Below, one piece after another: positions 2,245 to 12,327 of a stretch of 64,000 bases of DNA (the first letter of the stretch is position 1; each line of letters opens with the position of its first letter). The translations under genes and the position numbers were made by a program. The notes below the pieces were generated by a model that did not search any database, was not told the DNA's origin, and worked only from the letters and a program-made list of their open reading frames with translations. This DNA is from Escherichia coli (lineage in GTDB: Bacteria; Pseudomonadota; Gammaproteobacteria; Enterobacterales; Enterobacteriaceae), in the NCBI RefSeq assembly GCF_045037415.1, contig NZ_CP173439.1; one strand, written 5' to 3'.

Positions 2245-2514
2245 ATGGATGAAAAAGTATACTTTCGCCTCAGCTATGAAACGATGACCGGCGATACGGA
2301 AGACTTCATTAACGCATGTATTGAACGGGCAAACCGTGCGGACTGCAACGATACCGATGCGGAGATTGCCCGCGCACGCAGCACCATTGAACTCTGGTAC
2401 TGTCTGGCACTCGCGGGGCGTGCCCCAGACGACGTCGCCGACAGGGATCATCTGCGGTTCACCGAAATGCTCCTGCGCGCCCCGACAGCAGAACAACGCG
2501 CATGTCAGCTGTAA
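2245..2514 (+). CDS. hypothetical protein (high-GC gene)
   Basis: 89-aa ORF divergent from ccdA; noticeably GC-rich relative to neighbours; no recognisable family. Confidence 0.35.
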   Translation: MDEKVYFRLSYETMTGDTEDFINACIERANRADCNDTDAEIARARSTIELWYCLALAGRAPDDVADRDHLRFTEMLLRAPTAEQRACQL

Positions 2515-3098
2515 CCTCCCGTGGGCCGTCGCCGCTGCAACGACGGGTGCTGATTGTGCTGGCTGCCCTTGATGAAAAACGGCCTGGCCCCGTGCTGACT
2601 CGGGACATAGAACGGGTGCTGGAGCGAAGCGGGGAAGCCCCGGTCTACGGACCAAACCTGCGCGCCTCCTGCCGGCGCATGGAAGCATCAGGCTGGCTTC
2701 GCACACTGCGCGCCCCGAATCTGCAGCTGGCTGTCGAACTGACGGACGCCGGCCGGGCCGTGGCACAGCCTCTGCTGCTGGCAGAACAGGACCGCCTCCG
2801 GGCAAAACAGCGCGCGGCAGAAGTCGTCGTACTGCCGCTGGTCCCGGCATCAGGTCTGCCCGCAGACGGCACTTCTGCCACTGATCTGGCGGTGGAGCTG
2901 AACGGCATGACGTATCAGGCCTGCCGTGGGGATTTTGTGGTACGTCTCGACGGCAGCACCTGTCTGCAGTTATGGAACAGAGAAGGCAAGGTGGTACGCC
3001 GGGAGGGCGATCCGCTGGAAGTGGCGCAGTGGCTGCAGGCCTGTCATGATGCCGGAATAAAAGTTCGTGTACAGGTTAATGAAAGTATCACCCCGTAA
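2502..3098 (+). CDS. hypothetical protein, possible winged-helix N-terminus
   Basis: 198-aa ORF overlapping the upstream ORF end; N-terminal LQRRVLIVLAALDE...VLTRDIERVLE resembles a DNA-binding fold; GC-rich. Confidence 0.45.
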   Translation: MSAVTSRGPSPLQRRVLIVLAALDEKRPGPVLTRDIERVLERSGEAPVYGPNLRASCRRMEASGWLRTLRAPNLQLAVELTDAGRAVAQPLLLAEQDRLRAKQRAAEVVVLPLVPASGLPADGTSATDLAVELNGMTYQACRGDFVVRLDGSTCLQLWNREGKVVRREGDPLEVAQWLQACHDAGIKVRVQVNESITP

Positions 3099-3165
3099 AA
3101 ACATGCCTGCACGATTCACACATCATCCCATGGTGGCAGCCGGTTAACTTTCCTGCACCACCAGT
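3075..3165. repeat. Inverted-repeat copy A (~90 bp) bounding the AT-rich lasso island; partner at 9035..9125
   Basis: Reverse complement of 9035..9125 matches this stretch with a few mismatches (shared ...ccccgtaaaaacatgcctgcacg...catcccatggtggcagccggttaactttcctgc...). Confidence 0.6.
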
Positions 3166-3463
3166 GGAAAGAGGCCATGAGCAGTCCGAACAAAAAACCA
3201 CCCGTGATACTTATAATAATGGCCTCACCGGCCACCATTCCTGACGGCCCCCAGTAGATAAACCACATTGCACATCCCCAGGAAATGCCCCATAAGCCCC
3301 CCGTCAGCACCGTGACCTGCCAGAACGGCATAAAGGGTAATGGCGGAAGCCGGATCCCCAGCCGCCAGAGAATACGCAGAAGAGGAGGGGCATAATTGCT
3401 CCGCCACATCTTTTTGCTGTCCATCAGGGCAATGGCCCGGGCTTTTTTCTGCTCAAAAGTCAC
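3116..3463 (-). CDS. hypothetical small membrane protein
   Basis: 115-aa ORF with hydrophobic helices (LWGISWGCAMWFIYW, IIISITGGFLFGLLMASF); its last ~17 codons are duplicated in inverted orientation near 9040..9090. Confidence 0.5.
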   Translation of the reverse strand: MTFEQKKARAIALMDSKKMWRSNYAPPLLRILWRLGIRLPPLPFMPFWQVTVLTGGLWGISWGCAMWFIYWGPSGMVAGEAIIISITGGFLFGLLMASFHWWCRKVNRLPPWDDV

Positions 3464-3573
3464 AGGAGTACCTCCGTTCCATGATGTAAACGTGACACAG
3501 TTTATTGTTATTGATTATTATTATCATTATGTTATCACGCACCAGTACACGATGACAATAAAGGAGAAACCAG

Positions 3574-3921
3574 ATGAAAGCGGATATATCTGTAAAGTAT
3601 TTTCTGAAAAGCCTGATACCAGGTTTCATTATTCTTACAGTTTTTTATCTGGGATGGAAAGATAACCAGGAAAATTCAAGAATGTTTTATGCGTTCATCG
3701 GATGCATTATCAGCTCCATTACTTTTCCTTTTTCAATGAAGATAATACAGAAAATGGTAATAAGGTTTACAGGGAAAGAAGTCTGGCAAAAAGACTTCTT
3801 TACTAATCCAGTTGGCGGAAGCTTAACTGTAATATTTGAATTATTCTGTTTCGTTATATCAGTTCCTGTAGTTGCCATTTACTTAATATTTATATTCTGC
3901 AAAACCCTTTCAGGAAAATGA
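3574..3921 (+). CDS. small polytopic membrane protein, unknown function (first gene of the AT-rich island)
   Basis: 115-aa ORF with about three hydrophobic segments; AT-rich codon usage like the lasso genes downstream. Confidence 0.5.
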   Translation: MKADISVKYFLKSLIPGFIILTVFYLGWKDNQENSRMFYAFIGCIISSITFPFSMKIIQKMVIRFTGKEVWQKDFFTNPVGGSLTVIFELFCFVISVPVVAIYLIFIFCKTLSGK

Positions 3922-4456
3922 AAGGGCATCATTATATGTCAGATACCAATAAGTTTATTGTTCTGCTCAATAAACTTATCATTAACAAGCGCACTCACAG
4001 CAGCCATAATAATTGCAAAACCCAGAATACCTACAAGGGTCCCCGGCATGACGGAAAACGTCCATGCGGTAACAGATGAAGTAGCTCTTCCTGCTGCCAG
4101 TGATTCAAGTTTTACAAAAAATGGACGCCAGTTATCTGTCCAGACAACCTTACCAAACTCAGTGCTCCAGTCAGCAAAATCGTTGCCTTCAGTACACCGT
4201 GTTTTCTCTTCAGCTCTCTTCTGGTTGATGTCGGCAAGCTGGCAACAAAAATTCTCTTTTTACGTCAAGAACGTCATTTGCATGTTTTTACTCATTTGTT
4301 CTGGCACTGACGTTATTTCTCGCCGAATTTACCGCAGATTCAGCAAAGGTGATTTTATTGTAACTGCAACACCTACCAGATGACGGAAAACGGGTGAACG
4401 GATTAGAGTACGATTTTTCCATTTCGTGATCTTCACCTCAGAACCCCACCATTGAT

Positions 4457-4475
4457 GATAAAAATGATTATCATT
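4457..4475 (+). promoter_or_regulatory. Fur-box-like sequence next to the precursor promoter
   Basis: gataaaaatgattatcatt matches about 13 of 19 positions of the Fur consensus GATAATGATAATCATTATC; inner tgattatcatt is one mismatch from tgataatcatt. Confidence 0.3.
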
Positions 4476-4479
4476 CGCA

Positions 4480-4507
4480 TTGACACTTTGAAATAAGTAG
4501 TTATATT
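4480..4507 (+). promoter_or_regulatory. putative sigma-70 promoter of the lasso precursor gene
   Basis: TTGACA (4480..4485), 16-bp spacer, TATATT (4502..4507); about 70 bp upstream of the precursor ATG, which has an AAGGA Shine-Dalgarno. Confidence 0.35.
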
Positions 4508-4576
4508 TTTCATGGTTATTGAGCAATTGGTAACCAATGTAGGTTGTAGGTGTTTCATTTTCATTAAGGAATATGT

Positions 4577-4765
4577 ATGAAAAAACAATCTAAAGAAGTG
4601 AAAACCTCTGGCTCTGAACATCGTGAAATTATGATAGAAATTGATGCCTCTAAATCGACGAACGGTACCGGTGGAGGCTCCATCATTGAAGGGTCATACA
4701 CTGTCTATCGCTGCGATGGCGGAAGTGTCCCCTCGCGTCCTTTTGGCCCCCCATTCTGTCCTTAA
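4577..4765 (+). CDS. putative lasso-peptide precursor (A gene)
   Basis: 62-aa ORF MKKQSKEVKTSGSEHREIMIEIDASKSTNGTGGGSIIEGSYTVYRCDGGSVPSRPFGPPFCP; good SD; immediately upstream of the cyclase; Thr near the leader end, Gly-rich core start, Glu at a ring-forming distance, aromatic and Cys residues in the tail. Confidence 0.6.
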   Translation: MKKQSKEVKTSGSEHREIMIEIDASKSTNGTGGGSIIEGSYTVYRCDGGSVPSRPFGPPFCP

Positions 4766-4892
4766 ATTTAAAGGCTGGTCATGATTGAAATATTCACTTC
4801 TCTCAAACGAAAGCAATGAATCCGATAATACAGGTATATTCGATAAAAAGGACGTCTTTTGTGGCGTCCTTACCTTAAGGAGATTATTACGA

Positions 4893-6281
4893 ATGTCTTT
4901 GGGGGATAAATTTACATCTGGATACCGTGGGATTAATGCCTTCAATAGTGGCGTGATAAAACTTCTTGTTGCCAGAGAAAATGACTGGATTGAAGAAAAA
5001 CTTAGTGCCATTTTAACTCAATCACCTCGTATTGATTTCGAACCACTCATTGCGAGTATAGTTTTTGGGCGTACTGAGGGGAAAACTTCATTATTTAAAA
5101 ATGTGGAATGTATTGTTCCTGGTTGCAGTTTTAAAATTGACCACACGCACAATGGTGCATCCGTAAGTGAATATATTGACTGGAATGCAATTTCATATAA
5201 GACATTACCGCACGACCCGGCAGAGATTCTTTTTCAGTCTGTATCTGAAGTCGTCAACAGAAATCAAGGCGGATACTTTGTTGTGCGCCTGTCTGGTGGC
5301 ATGGACTCTACTGGCATTCTTCTCTCACTAATGGAGGCAGTTGATGTAAGCAGAATTATTGCCATAACTTATCGGTACCTTATGGGGACAAGCAATCAAG
5401 ATGAAGTATCAGCAAGGTATTTATGTAAAATATTTGGAATCAGGCAAATAATAATTGATTTTGAACCTCATTCATTATTTCATAGGCTTCCTTCACCAGT
5501 GCCTCCTGTTCTAAATATGAGAACAATAAATTTTAAAGTTTATGAAGAGGAAAGAAAGCGTATCGGAAGTATCTGTGGAGATAATTATACCCTGTTTGAT
5601 GGGCATGGGGGGGACCATGTATTTTGTGAGAAAATCCCGTTTGGAATAATAAAAGAGTTATTTTTCCATGGGAGTTTGTTAACCTCATGCCGTAAGTTAT
5701 TACAGATAGCTCGCCTTCATGGCATAAATATGAAAGATGTCTTATTAATGCATACTAATAGTATGCATTATCTTATAACTGAAGCACAGTGTTATTTTTC
5801 CAAAGATGTTATAAAAAACCTTCACTATGACAGAAAAACAGTAAGTGAAGAAAGAAAGTCAGCCCTTCAGGAGGCTATTCTTGATAATGGGACGAGCCTG
5901 ACGCTGAGTCTTACGGAAAACGATATATTCCCTTTTACAGACCAGAGGATGATAGGCTATGGTCTGAAACTCAGAGTTGAGGAGTCATTTGATACTACAT
6001 CAAAACGATTTCAATACAGAAAAGCGATTAATGACAGATATAAATTTGTATTTACCAGAAAAGATAAGGGGCATATAACAGGTGCATATCAGTCGGCCCT
6101 TAGTGTTAATAAGGACCGTGTTATTAATCTTCTGCGCCATGGGCAGTTCGCGACACACGGTTTGTTAAACTTGGAGGGGGTAGAGCGAGCAATAGAAACA
6201 AGTTCTCATGGCATCGGTGGAGTCAGTTTTATTCTTATGAAATTAATTGCTGCAGAACTTATCTTTGAAGGATATTTATAA
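4893..6281 (+). CDS. lasso-peptide cyclase (asparagine synthetase B-like, C protein)
   Basis: ORF 4785..6281 with the likely start at ATG 4893 (AAGGAG SD); PP-loop ATP pyrophosphatase motif VVRLSGGMDSTGIL; size like McjC; stop overlaps the next start (TAATG). Confidence 0.75.
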   Translation: MSLGDKFTSGYRGINAFNSGVIKLLVARENDWIEEKLSAILTQSPRIDFEPLIASIVFGRTEGKTSLFKNVECIVPGCSFKIDHTHNGASVSEYIDWNAISYKTLPHDPAEILFQSVSEVVNRNQGGYFVVRLSGGMDSTGILLSLMEAVDVSRIIAITYRYLMGTSNQDEVSARYLCKIFGIRQIIIDFEPHSLFHRLPSPVPPVLNMRTINFKVYEEERKRIGSICGDNYTLFDGHGGDHVFCEKIPFGIIKELFFHGSLLTSCRKLLQIARLHGINMKDVLLMHTNSMHYLITEAQCYFSKDVIKNLHYDRKTVSEERKSALQEAILDNGTSLTLSLTENDIFPFTDQRMIGYGLKLRVEESFDTTSKRFQYRKAINDRYKFVFTRKDKGHITGAYQSALSVNKDRVINLLRHGQFATHGLLNLEGVERAIETSSHGIGGVSFILMKLIAAELIFEGYL

Positions 6282-6964
6282 TGACTTCATTCTACTTTAA
6301 GCCGAATATACATCATGTCAATATTAATAATGAAATAACTATCCTTGATGAGATATCTGATCGTTATATCCTTCTTTCAGAAAAGCAATCAATTCTCTTA
6401 AAAGAGTATATGAGTGATGGTTCTCATAATTATGTCGGTGATACAATGAACCTGGAAGGTATAATTTCTAAGGAGTCGGGTACTCCTTTGGCAAAGAGTA
6501 CTCCGTCTCCTCAGGGGGTTGGTATATTGACCTGGAACAGTTATGTCAGCACTCGGTTGGGTATTGCCAGTTTTTTTTATATCTCTGAAGCAATAATGAG
6601 AATGATTCTTGTCCGAAAACGTCTCCAGTCAAAGGGTTTTCACCATTGCCTTGAGCATTGTCGTTGTGCGCTTAGCCAGAAGAGTTTTCCGTACATTTCC
6701 CTGAAAGATAAATTAATTATTGGGCAGAAGTTGAGCCAGAGTATTAAAATTGCGGCACCGTTTATCCCGGGCAAGGTTAAATGCCTTGAGTTTTCACTTG
6801 TTTTGTTCGACATGTTAGTGTCAAGAAAAATCAGTCCCACATTATTTATTGGATTCCAGCGCTATGATTTTCTTTCTCATGCATGGCTGGAAATTGATAA
6901 TGAAGTGGTTGCAGACCAAGATAACCTGAAAACAAAACTTACACCAATAATTAGAGTGGGATAA
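6281..6964 (+). CDS. lasso-peptide leader peptidase (transglutaminase-like Cys protease, B protein)
   Basis: 227 aa; candidate Cys...His...Asp triad (KVKCLEF ... LSHAWLEIDNE) with spacing like McjB; translationally coupled on both sides. Confidence 0.7.
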   Translation: MTSFYFKPNIHHVNINNEITILDEISDRYILLSEKQSILLKEYMSDGSHNYVGDTMNLEGIISKESGTPLAKSTPSPQGVGILTWNSYVSTRLGIASFFYISEAIMRMILVRKRLQSKGFHHCLEHCRCALSQKSFPYISLKDKLIIGQKLSQSIKIAAPFIPGKVKCLEFSLVLFDMLVSRKISPTLFIGFQRYDFLSHAWLEIDNEVVADQDNLKTKLTPIIRVG

Positions 6965-8688
6965 TGAAAATAAAAAATGTCATTTGTGAATTAAAATCAG
7001 GGGCAAGTGCTTACTCTTCGGCCTACAAGCTCATACGCTCACTGTATCCCGCATTCACATTTTCTTTTATCGGTGTGTCCATTCTCTTTATTCTGGCTTC
7101 GGTTCTTGGTGCATTACTTCCTTATCTGCTCAAAAAGACAGCGGAGGCGTATACTTTCTCTGAAGGGATATTATCTGCATTTTTCCTGATCACAATGACC
7201 TACGCCGTCAGCTGGACAGTGACCGAAGTACTGAAGAATATCAGAGGCATTTTTTCTGCGGGAATTCTGGCACAAGCAGATGCAGCACTAACCAGTAACA
7301 CGATGGAGATTTTACTTTCTATTAGTTTCCGGAAACAAAAGGAATTTGAGCCGGCGGTCCTGGCTGCAAATATTGATCGTGGCGCGCAATCATTCAGTGC
7401 GCTGACATTATCTGTTTTCTGGACACTACTCCCAATTACTGTAGAAATCAGTATGGCTGTTTATTTTCTTTATCAGAGTCTGGGTTTTACTTATTCACTT
7501 ATTTTCTCAATTTCTGTTATAGGTATGATTTTTCTTGCCTTCAGCATAGCGATCTTTAGTCGTCATATCCATACCGATATAATGAATACTCAGAATGGGG
7601 TGTATTCTTATACGATTGAGCGACTTGCCATGCCGTTGGATATCCGAATTAATTCAGCTCATGCAAAAGAAAGAGTTCTTCGCCAGGAAATTCTTAATCA
7701 GTATGTTAATACAATTAAGCTGACCAATAAAAAAATGGGCTTTTTACTGTCACTACAGGCAGTAGCTGTAGGCGTATTGCTTGCTATATCCGTACTGGTT
7801 CTGGTTTTTTTTAAAAAAGCGTCTCATATTGGAACTGGTGACTTTATTATGATTGTGGGCTATATTAGCATGCTAACATTTCAGTTGCGCACAATAGCCG
7901 GAGCCAGCATTGACATTCAACGCCAGATTGTGTACCTGAAAATTCTTCTGGAATATAACAGTATGCATCCCGAAGGGGTTATCCCTGATACAGTAAGCTC
8001 CCGCAGCACTGAGCGTATTTTTGATGTGCGTAATCTTGGAGCTTTTGCTGACGGCAGACTCCTCTTTAATAATGTGAGCTTCAGGATCCATGAAGGTGAA
8101 ATGTTTGCACTTTCTGCGCCTTCAGGTTTTGGTAAATCCACAATTCTGCAATATTTACTCGGTCTTGATACCCCAACTGAGGGCGATATTTATTTCCGAG
8201 GATACCGGATTAACACAGAGTTGAGTGCGTCTATCCTGGAGGACGTTGCTGTTGTGCCTCAAAAAGCCGTTCTGGTGCAGGGAACTATTCGTGATAATAT
8301 TCTGTATGGAACCGATGACATTCTTCCCGATGATGAACTGTTTTGCATCCTGAATTCATTGGGGTTAATTAAAGAGGACTGCGGAGAACATTTCCTTGCT
8401 TTCCTAGACCGGGATATTAATCCTCTGGGTAGTGGTTTGAGTGGTGGAGAGATCCAGCGATTATGCATAGCCCGCGCCCTAGCCCGTAAGAAAAAGATTA
8501 TCGTACTTGATGAACCCACGGCCTCTATTGGCGAAGAACTCGCGATAAAGATCATTACCTATATCCGGCAGCATTGCCCTACCGTTATTATTACAACTCA
8601 TAATCCACGAATTCTGGAGCTCGCCGATCATTTTTTTGATGGTATGTCAAAGTCTTGCGTCATTGCTGGAGAAGGCAGAGACCAATAA
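6964..8688 (+). CDS. ABC exporter (fused permease-ATPase, McjD-like export/immunity, D protein)
   Basis: 574 aa; N-terminal multi-TM domain; Walker A APSGFGKST, signature LSGGEIQR, Walker B IIVLDEPT. Confidence 0.85.
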   Translation: MKIKNVICELKSGASAYSSAYKLIRSLYPAFTFSFIGVSILFILASVLGALLPYLLKKTAEAYTFSEGILSAFFLITMTYAVSWTVTEVLKNIRGIFSAGILAQADAALTSNTMEILLSISFRKQKEFEPAVLAANIDRGAQSFSALTLSVFWTLLPITVEISMAVYFLYQSLGFTYSLIFSISVIGMIFLAFSIAIFSRHIHTDIMNTQNGVYSYTIERLAMPLDIRINSAHAKERVLRQEILNQYVNTIKLTNKKMGFLLSLQAVAVGVLLAISVLVLVFFKKASHIGTGDFIMIVGYISMLTFQLRTIAGASIDIQRQIVYLKILLEYNSMHPEGVIPDTVSSRSTERIFDVRNLGAFADGRLLFNNVSFRIHEGEMFALSAPSGFGKSTILQYLLGLDTPTEGDIYFRGYRINTELSASILEDVAVVPQKAVLVQGTIRDNILYGTDDILPDDELFCILNSLGLIKEDCGEHFLAFLDRDINPLGSGLSGGEIQRLCIARALARKKKIIVLDEPTASIGEELAIKIITYIRQHCPTVIITTHNPRILELADHFFDGMSKSCVIAGEGRDQ

Positions 8689-8712
8689 ACCACACACGTT
8701 AATTCATTTATA

Positions 8713-8980
8713 TCTAATCGGGGTTGTACGCCGGAAACGCCGAAATTTCCGATACAGCGAATTTGTTGATTTTTGAAGCATGTTTGGCAGGTTTTGACGT
8801 GTACGTTTATGGTGCAGTAAGTGAGAATTTATTCGTACCAGCCATATGATACGTTACGGGCAGTGATTTTTCGCGCTAGACAGCTATTTCTTTGCTGTCC
8901 GGTTAACTGTGGTCTTACGTACAGGTTGCCGAGCATAAAATTTGTGCCTCCCGGAAATTTCGGCGTTTCCGGCGTACAAC
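8713..8980. mobile_element. miniature inverted-repeat element (~268 bp) with 32-bp perfect terminal IRs beginning GGGG
   Basis: GGGGTTGTACGCCGGAAACGCCGAAATTTCCG at 8713..8744 and its exact reverse complement at 8949..8980; no ORF between. Confidence 0.45.
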
Positions 8981-9034
8981 CCCAAATAAATTCAATTAAT
9001 TACCTAAACAAGGTGAGACTTTTAGAGGAAATGA

Positions 9035-9125
9035 GCGCGGAACCCCTCTTTCCACTGGTGGCGCAGGAAAGTTAACCGGCTGCCACCATGGGATGATGTG
9101 TAAACCGTGCAGGCATGTTTTTACG
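9035..9125. repeat. Inverted-repeat copy B (partner of 3075..3165)
   Basis: Contains an inverted duplicate of the 3' end of the 3116..3463 gene (reads ...SFHWWRRKVNRLPPWDDV*) plus its downstream sequence. Confidence 0.6.
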
Positions 9126-9137
9126 GGATGATGCTTT

Positions 9138-9169
9138 CATTTGGATATAGAGAATTATTGTACGTTCAG
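9138..9169. repeat. partial copy of a 38-bp Tn3-family-like terminal repeat (tttggatatagagaattattgtac...)
   Basis: Shares the core tttggatat.ga.aattattgtac with copies at 32001, 42145 and 56465. Confidence 0.4.
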
Positions 9170-9465: not shown

Positions 9466-9852
9466 CTAATTTAGAATAATGGCTTTAAGATGGTCAGAAA
9501 CCATCTTCCAGTTATATTCTCCTGTTGCAGCATTCAAAGCGATAATTTGCATTTCATCAAACGAAATACGTGAACTAATAATATGTACACCATTCCGTTT
9601 TAAAAAAACCTGTGCAACAAACAAGGCTGTTCGCTTATTTGCATCGTTGAAAATGTGACCACGAGCAATAGCAACTAAATACACGGCAGCCAGATCCATA
9701 ATATCTGTCACACCTTCATAATGATACATGTTCAAAACACGATGAATGATCGCGTCAGCGCGACCGGGTTCTGGCATACCCGCCACGCCACCATCACGCG
9801 AAATCAAGCGGTCATGAAACTCAATCACTTCCTGTGAACTAACGAATTTCAT
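9466..9852 (-). CDS. doc: Doc toxin (Fic/Doc family)
   Basis: 128 aa with the Doc motif HIFNDANKRTA; overall similar to P1 Doc as recalled; overlaps the phd stop. Confidence 0.8.
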   Translation of the reverse strand: MKFVSSQEVIEFHDRLISRDGGVAGMPEPGRADAIIHRVLNMYHYEGVTDIMDLAAVYLVAIARGHIFNDANKRTALFVAQVFLKRNGVHIISSRISFDEMQIIALNAATGEYNWKMVSDHLKAIILN

Positions 9853-10073
9853 CGCTTAGAAAGCTCCGTATAGGCCGTCCCATGACTTTGCATGATCTCA
9901 GCAAACTCAGCATCAAGAGCCGCTTTACGGTATCGTTCAAAAGCGTCTTTATCAACTAGTACAGCCGCGCCACCTTTACGGCGCTGAATCTCAACAGGCT
10001 GATTTTCATCAACCGCCAGCTCGAGCAACGAGGCCAGGTTATCGCGAGCATGGCTATAGTTACATGTAAACAT
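9849..10073 (-). CDS. phd: Phd antitoxin (Phd/YefM family)
   Basis: From internal Met: MFTCNYSHARDNLASLLELAVDENQPVEIQRRKGGAAVLVDKDAFERYRKAALDAEFAEI..., close to P1 Phd. Confidence 0.75.
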   Translation of the reverse strand: MFTCNYSHARDNLASLLELAVDENQPVEIQRRKGGAAVLVDKDAFERYRKAALDAEFAEIMQSHGTAYTELSKR

Positions 10074-10090
10074 AGTGCTTCCTCTTTGAG

Positions 10091-10111
10091 TTGTACAATT
10101 AAATTGTACAA
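10091..10111. promoter_or_regulatory. putative phd-doc operator: two TTGTACAA palindromes
   Basis: ttgtacaattaaattgtacaa about 20 bp upstream of the phd start; each 8-mer is self-complementary. Confidence 0.35.
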
Positions 10112-10260
10112 CAGTTCTGTTCAATATGAAATCACCGTAGTAAGGGGGGCGTGCCCATTTCCTCTAAAAGTCTCACCTTTATTATGTAATTAATTGAGTT
10201 TATTTAGAAAATGTTGCAATTTTAGCATCATTTTTTATTGTTCTTTTTAACCTGAAGTAG

Positions 10261-10357: not shown

Positions 10358-12327
<1,970 letters not shown>

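Follow-up and report, generated by a model that had tools for sequence, protein, structure and literature searches.

[quoted passage not shown] Three transmembrane helices are characteristic of the E1 type of immunity protein, which includes those for colicins E1, Ia and K (PMC10906532). At colicin Ib loci, the immunity gene, imm, is transcribed opposite to the colicin gene, cib, and its product blocks pore formation (bioRxiv 10.1101/2024.06.29.601355; PMC3879352); the experimentally studied cib/imm locus is that of pCol1B9_SL1344 (PMC3879352). In the reference plasmid ColIb-P9 (NC_002122.1), a gene for a 626-aa colicin is followed, on the opposite strand, by one for a 115-aa 'colicin 1B immunity protein'. 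Immunity genes for pore-forming toxins are also commonly found as orphans beside heavily truncated toxin genes in E. coli plasmids, where the same toxin truncation has spread across distinct plasmids and where the orphans have been argued to be under selection (PMC12546727).

The window analysed here, a 64,000-nucleotide stretch of E. coli DNA, carries an intact gene of this kind upstream of a lasso-peptide gene cluster (Table 1). The original prediction of a 115-aa protein with about three transmembrane helices was borne out: Kyte–Doolittle analysis places three hydrophobic segments at residues ~9–28, 37–58 and 83–110, and an AlphaFold2 model computed from an alignment of 40 family sequences is entirely helical (residues 7–30, 35–66, 68–75 and 81–114; mean pLDDT 83, pTM 0.67). 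The protein had also been described as having no recognisable family, a description that does not survive comparison with Pfam. PF03526, 'Colicin E1 (microcin) immunity protein', matches it at 30.3 bits (E = 3.6e-07; gathering cut-off, 25 bits), the model covering residues 44–81 only, and the same model matches 36 of the 40 aligned family representatives. When 1.84 billion cluster representatives were scanned exhaustively with HMMER, 64 relatives emerged, nearly all of ~110 aa, and the family alignment identifies an invariant proline (P52) and two nearly invariant residues (W71 and P98), all of which are present in the window protein. NCBIfam contained no match to the protein. Neither a sequence-profile search of the PDB nor a Foldseek search with the AlphaFold2 model returned anything meaningful, and no solved structure of the family was found. 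The exact protein has a RefSeq record, WP_001554926.1, named 'colicin E1 family microcin immunity protein', in pVR50B, a plasmid of E. coli VR50 that matches the window at 99.93% identity over 12.4 kb.

Table 1. Positions of imm, its regulatory sites and the neighbouring features, numbered from the first nucleotide of the window
Feature	Position	Strand	Details and basis
imm, colicin Ib-type (E1-type, three-helix) pore-forming-colicin immunity protein	3574-3921	+	115 aa, intact; ATG at 3574, stop codon at 3919-3921; ORF list, PF03526, identity to ColIb-P9
imm Shine–Dalgarno sequence, AAGGAG	3561-3566	+	7 nt before the ATG; read from sequence; identical in ColIb-P9 (alignment)
imm promoter-like site, GTGACA-18-TATTAT	3492-3521	+	consensus scan only; function putative
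Fur-box-like 19-mers	3507-3525, 3513-3531		15/19 each; overlap the putative imm promoter (motif scoring)
Two overlapping hypothetical genes opening the colicin-I module	2245-2514, 2502-3098	+	collinear with ColIb-P9 and an IncI plasmid, 92-94% nucleotide identity
DUF6404 gene, whose place beside imm is conserved in colicin Ia and Ib modules	3116-3463	-	PF19942, E = 1.8e-36
Dead colicin Ib-like remnant, convergent with imm	3939-4359	-	tblastn with the ColIb-P9 colicin; nucleotide alignment
Breakpoint from colicin homology to lasso-island sequence	4359/4360		sequence comparison
Lasso cluster (context, outside the imm unit)	4462-8688	+	precursor 4577-4765, cyclase C 4785-6281, B2 protease 6281-6964, ABC exporter 6964-8688
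Promoter-like site of the lasso cluster, TTGACA-16-TATATT	4480-4507		strong, 11/12 consensus (scan)
Left arm of the 97-nt inverted repeat	3078-3174		native junction where the hypothetical and DUF6404 genes meet tail to tail (3' ends), collinear with ColIb-P9
Right arm of the 97-nt inverted repeat	9045-9141		stray inverted fragment of the same junction; still encodes the DUF6404 C terminus

Comparison with the reference loci places the gene with colicin Ib. The encoded protein is identical to the ColIb-P9 immunity protein at 104 of 115 residues (90%), the eleven substitutions being mostly conservative, and to that of an IncI plasmid at 105 of 115; at the nucleotide level, the gene is 94.8% identical to its counterpart in pCol1B9_SL1344 (NC_017718.1). 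We assigned it to the Ib type, rather than the Ia type, because its identity to the colicin Ia immunity protein (Iia) is only 24%. Iia, at 111 aa against 115, nevertheless shares the Pfam family, the three-helix layout and the module of neighbouring genes, and it too occurs as an orphan adjoining a truncated colicin gene (locus L007), for example beside the IS1-truncated colicin Ia gene of ColV-type IncF plasmids. The wider colicin E1 immunity family (PF03526) shares the HMM match, the P52, W71 and P98 residues, a length of ~110 aa and three transmembrane helices, whereas the ColE1 immunity protein itself is distant from the window protein. Both the length and the helix number are those given for the E1 type (~110 aa, three transmembrane helices; PMC10906532), and a pore-forming colicin gene, albeit as a remnant, directly adjoins on the opposite strand. 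With the ColIb-P9 and pCol1B9_SL1344 genes, imm has in common its length of 115 aa, a conserved ribosome-binding site and promoter-like region, and an upstream flank of two hypothetical genes and a DUF6404 gene. Its upstream region resembles that of ColIb-P9 except for an 8-bp deletion in the leader, downstream of the −10 element. The eleven substitutions, the leader deletion and the truncated, decayed partner colicin, which leaves imm an orphan, set the window copy apart from both reference loci.

The colicin-I module extends well beyond imm. Window positions 2526–4139 are collinear with ColIb-P9 (93% identity) and with an IncI-gamma/K1 plasmid (94%), in the shared order of two overlapping hypothetical genes, DUF6404 (−), imm (+) and the colicin gene (−). 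The same gene module also encloses colicin Ia on a colicin Ia plasmid, and the DUF6404 gene has the same position there, in the IncI colicin Ib plasmid and in ColIb-P9 DNA. As in ColIb-P9 and pCol1B9_SL1344, in which the colicin stop codon lies 17 bp from that of imm, the two genes of the window converge, the colicin homology beginning 17 bp after the imm stop codon; this convergent, nearly abutting layout matches the published one (bioRxiv 2024.06.29.601355). The imm gene and its family are both known, its module is the usual one, and it had already been annotated.

The colicin gene itself is dead. The remnant covers only residues ~385–440 and 550–626 of the ColIb protein, and it carries a stop codon, a frameshift and an in-frame deletion of ~110 codons; residues 1–384 and the promoter are missing. 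Its last 77–80 residues are ~83% identical to colicin Ib (ColIb residues 550–626), and the C-terminal domain of the reference colicin matches PDB entry 8iom, 'Colicin Ib'. At 4359/4360 colicin homology gives way to lasso-island sequence, and every lasso-linked plasmid examined shares this junction, even one whose colicin Ib allele is canonical. The 64-kb window holds no second colicin-I pore domain, and pVR50B contains one matching place only. We regard imm as an orphan because the remnant is dead and neither the window nor the near-identical pVR50B holds another colicin-I pore domain; thus, no intact cognate toxin gene was found on the replicon as represented by the two. The occurrence of the imm/lasso locus on both IncF and IncK2/Z backbones fits the pattern reported for truncated toxins in E. 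coli plasmids (PMC12546727).

The remnant is otherwise Ib-like and includes a hydrophobic hairpin, but positions 4125–4180 form a colicin Ia-like patch with a 'FADWxTEFGK' stretch; the pore-domain string of this mosaic reads DFADWSTEFGKVVWTDNWRPFFVKLESLAAGRATSSV. The mosaic raises the question of whether the gene might have served a third, unsampled colicin-I type, an Ib/Ia mosaic, and might confer protection from that variant, not from classical colicin Ib. The 11 differences among 115 residues from the ColIb-P9 immunity protein would accord with such a type, as would the 82.5% identity to colicin Ib over the last 80 residues of the remnant's pore domain together with its Ia-like stretch. Among the 72,556 plasmids of PLSDB, no intact colicin with the pore domain of the remnant was found, and nothing lay between 83% and 95% identity. 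The empty range cuts both ways: the lack of any intact colicin of intermediate identity (90–95%) is in keeping with a distinct type, whereas the lack of any intact toxin of that type among so many plasmids argues against its existence. Furthermore, the substitutions in imm are mostly conservative, and pseudogene decay and recombination could explain the divergence of the remnant. We consider a third type improbable, and slightly more so the fuller proposal that the imm allele and the mosaic remnant are the footprint of a third colicin-I toxin/immunity pair, with the orphan kept for protection against that colicin. Nonetheless, the eleven substitutions could have altered the specificity of the protein for colicin Ib.

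The original prediction offered two roles for the gene: an accessory factor for immunity or export in the lasso cluster, or an unrelated passenger. Several features lend the first role some appeal. The gene is codirectional with the lasso genes, as had been stated, and lies ~650 bp upstream of the precursor gene; a scan found no terminator-like site between the two; and imm travels with the cluster over IncF and IncK2/Z backbones. We considered transcriptional read-through from imm into a lasso operon, against which stands the cluster's own 11/12 promoter-like site; this site falls inside the sequence shared with an imm-less cluster from Salmonella salamae. The AT-richness that had been taken to tie the gene to its neighbours is real (32.5% G+C) but is no link to them, as the canonical colicin Ib imm gene itself has 34% G+C.

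Self-immunity in microcin J25 is provided by an ABC exporter of the McjD type. This is the kind of function that had been proposed for imm, which belongs to an unrelated class of protein, and here the role would most plausibly be filled by the 574-aa ABC exporter encoded by the cluster itself (6964–8688). The protein is of no class known from lasso clusters; its only family match is to colicin immunity proteins, which act on the channel domains of colicins, and a dead antisense colicin fragment stands between the gene and the cluster.

The distribution of the two loci among plasmids separates them in both directions. DNA homologous to imm was found in 731 plasmids, 672 of which contain at least 80% of the gene, and an imm at least 99% identical to that of the window, which is the lasso-linked allele, in 18 only. 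In the remaining imm plasmids that were inspected, the gene adjoins colicin Ia or Ib genes and there are no lasso genes; in total, ~650 plasmids contain most of imm but no lasso genes. Likewise, a query comprising imm and its flanks matched 666 of 5,426 complete E. coli genomes, and the imm/lasso junction was present in 18 only. The presence of homologues in contexts devoid of lasso genes had been named in advance as a finding that would tell against a lasso function, and it applies to nearly all of the ~670 plasmids that carry most of the gene.

The lasso cluster, which 23 plasmids (the Salmonella salamae one among them) carry at a coverage of at least 80%, in turn occurs without an intact imm. 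Five E. coli plasmids have the cluster at 99.4% identity, with the A, C, B and D genes intact, and have imm deleted; in these, a Tn3-family fragment abuts the equivalent of window position 4266 and 94 bp of the colicin remnant is kept. In the Salmonella salamae plasmid the cluster is 87% identical and mostly intact (the ABC gene is split), with homology starting at 4462 and toxin–antitoxin genes on its flanks; no imm was found within 6 kb of this cluster, which never had one. Three further plasmids have a damaged imm beside a 99.8–100%-identical cluster: in one, the gene is split after codon 73 by an IS3-family element; in another, it is frameshifted; and in the third, its first 13 nt and the upstream region are replaced. 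Co-occurrence of imm with lasso genes across independent contexts was therefore not observed.

One plasmid, LR890264.1, joins the lasso island at exactly the junction of the window with a different imm allele. This plasmid has a canonical Ib imm beside a colicin Ib frame that is headless but otherwise open (residues 385–626; positions 1630–2376 of the locus extracted from it); the frame retains the whole pore-forming domain at 99% identity to ColIb-P9 and has neither promoter nor N-terminal domains. Two imm alleles, ~91% identical, therefore adjoin the same lasso junction, which means that recombination with colicin plasmids swaps the imm side without involving the lasso side. Taken together with the promoter-like site and ABC exporter that the cluster has of its own, these observations show imm to be independent of it and render a self-immunity or export role extremely improbable. 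The relation between imm and the lasso cluster is one of physical linkage only; the gene is not a lasso immunity or export factor, and it was the second suggestion, that of an unrelated passenger, that proved correct.

The lasso cluster itself appears to be uncharacterised: searches by core-peptide string, RefSeq accession and the topic of lasso peptides on E. coli plasmids found no papers on it. Its 62-aa precursor, MKKQSKEVKTSGSEHREIMIEIDASKSTNGTGGGSIIEGSYTVYRCDGGSVPSRPFGPPFCP, has two cysteines in the putative core. The cyclase gene of the window is an uninterrupted 498-codon ORF, and that of pVR50B (positions 10594–11709 of the locus extracted from that plasmid) is annotated with only 1116 nt where other plasmids have 1389 nt, which suggests a disrupting mutation in pVR50B. 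The last 589 bp of the ABC-exporter region (window 8212–8800) also occurs alone, at 99.7% identity, in over 100 large plasmids of the IncF/ColV type from E. coli and Klebsiella, where it is annotated 'ATP-binding cassette domain-containing protein'; relics of the cluster have thus spread much more widely than intact copies.

The gene had further been described as lying inside an island bounded by inverted repeats. It does lie, with the lasso genes, between the arms of a 97-nt inverted repeat that are 95% complementary. We considered these arms as the ends of a mobile island or transposon carrying imm and rejected them, as both are fragments of the colicin module. Other repeats occur nearby. 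Just downstream of the lasso ABC gene is a 264-bp element (8720–8983) that looks like a Tn3-derived miniature element; the inverted repeats at its termini are perfect and 32 nt long (GGGGTTGTACGCCGGAAACGCCGAAATTTCCG). Similar sequence is present upstream of the Salmonella salamae cluster (positions 4439–4547 of that locus). A 56-nt inverted repeat (8984–9039 and 10150–10205, 89% complementary) brackets a phd/doc toxin–antitoxin cassette at 9466–10124 (−). In several plasmids, among them CP057792.1 and NZ_CP141225.1, a full-length Tn3-family transposase gene lies upstream; it ends ~27 bp before window homology starts, at the equivalent of position 3323, inside DUF6404. Together with the Tn3-family fragment at 4266 in the imm-deleted plasmids, this indicates that elements of the Tn3 family have struck the imm locus repeatedly.

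Such losses bear on whether the orphan still has a function. It might be a functionless relic that hitch-hikes with the cluster and decays neutrally, its intact frame being a matter of luck and recent ancestry. The lasso-linked copies are nearly clonal, 15 of them being identical at the protein level, so the intactness of the gene says little about selection. In other lasso plasmids the gene is deleted (five plasmids), split by the IS3-family element, frameshifted or replaced at its 5′ end; as ~8 of 25 lasso-bearing plasmids, roughly a third, lack imm or have a broken copy, any selection to keep it is not strong. The dN/dS relative to the canonical IncI-plasmid allele is 0.62, which fits relaxed constraint, although it is based on 17 substitutions only, too few to decide on selection. 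By contrast, the adjacent colicin remnant has decayed far more over the same history: in nucleotide alignments it shows ~15% divergence, a stop codon, a frameshift and several indels, compared with 5% divergence in imm, which has no indels. Both the ribosome-binding site and the promoter-like site of imm are also conserved, and the case made for selection on orphan immunity genes in E. coli plasmids (PMC12546727) speaks against mere decay. A relic is thus possible, yet we think it unlikely.

Our preferred reading, to which we assign a probability of about 0.85, is that imm is a colicin Ib immunity gene that was orphaned by the lasso island, is likely still protective and is now a linked passenger of the cluster. 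The convergent colicin gene was cut at about codon 385, where the lasso island joins, losing its promoter and its translocation and receptor-binding domains; it then decayed further, leaving imm an orphan. The promoter-like site at 3492–3521, the Fur-box-like 19-mers and the conserved ribosome-binding site suggest that imm is still expressed. If so, it would most likely still protect the host plasmid against colicin Ib released by competing E. coli and Salmonella that carry IncI-type plasmids. The immunity protein would meet the channel-forming domain of an incoming colicin Ib inside the membrane and would block pore opening through helix–helix contacts, a mechanism drawn from what is known of this immunity family.

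For annotation, these results mean that imm should be excluded from the lasso cluster, whose boundary starts near 4462, and that the gene is not worth pursuing as a lasso immunity factor. From the junction at 4359/4360, the lasso island's arrival in the colicin-I module can be dated and oriented. The locus is a further case of a common pattern in E. coli plasmids, that of an immunity gene outliving its toxin, and here the cause of the loss can be named: most of the colicin gene gave way to another cluster of antimicrobial genes.
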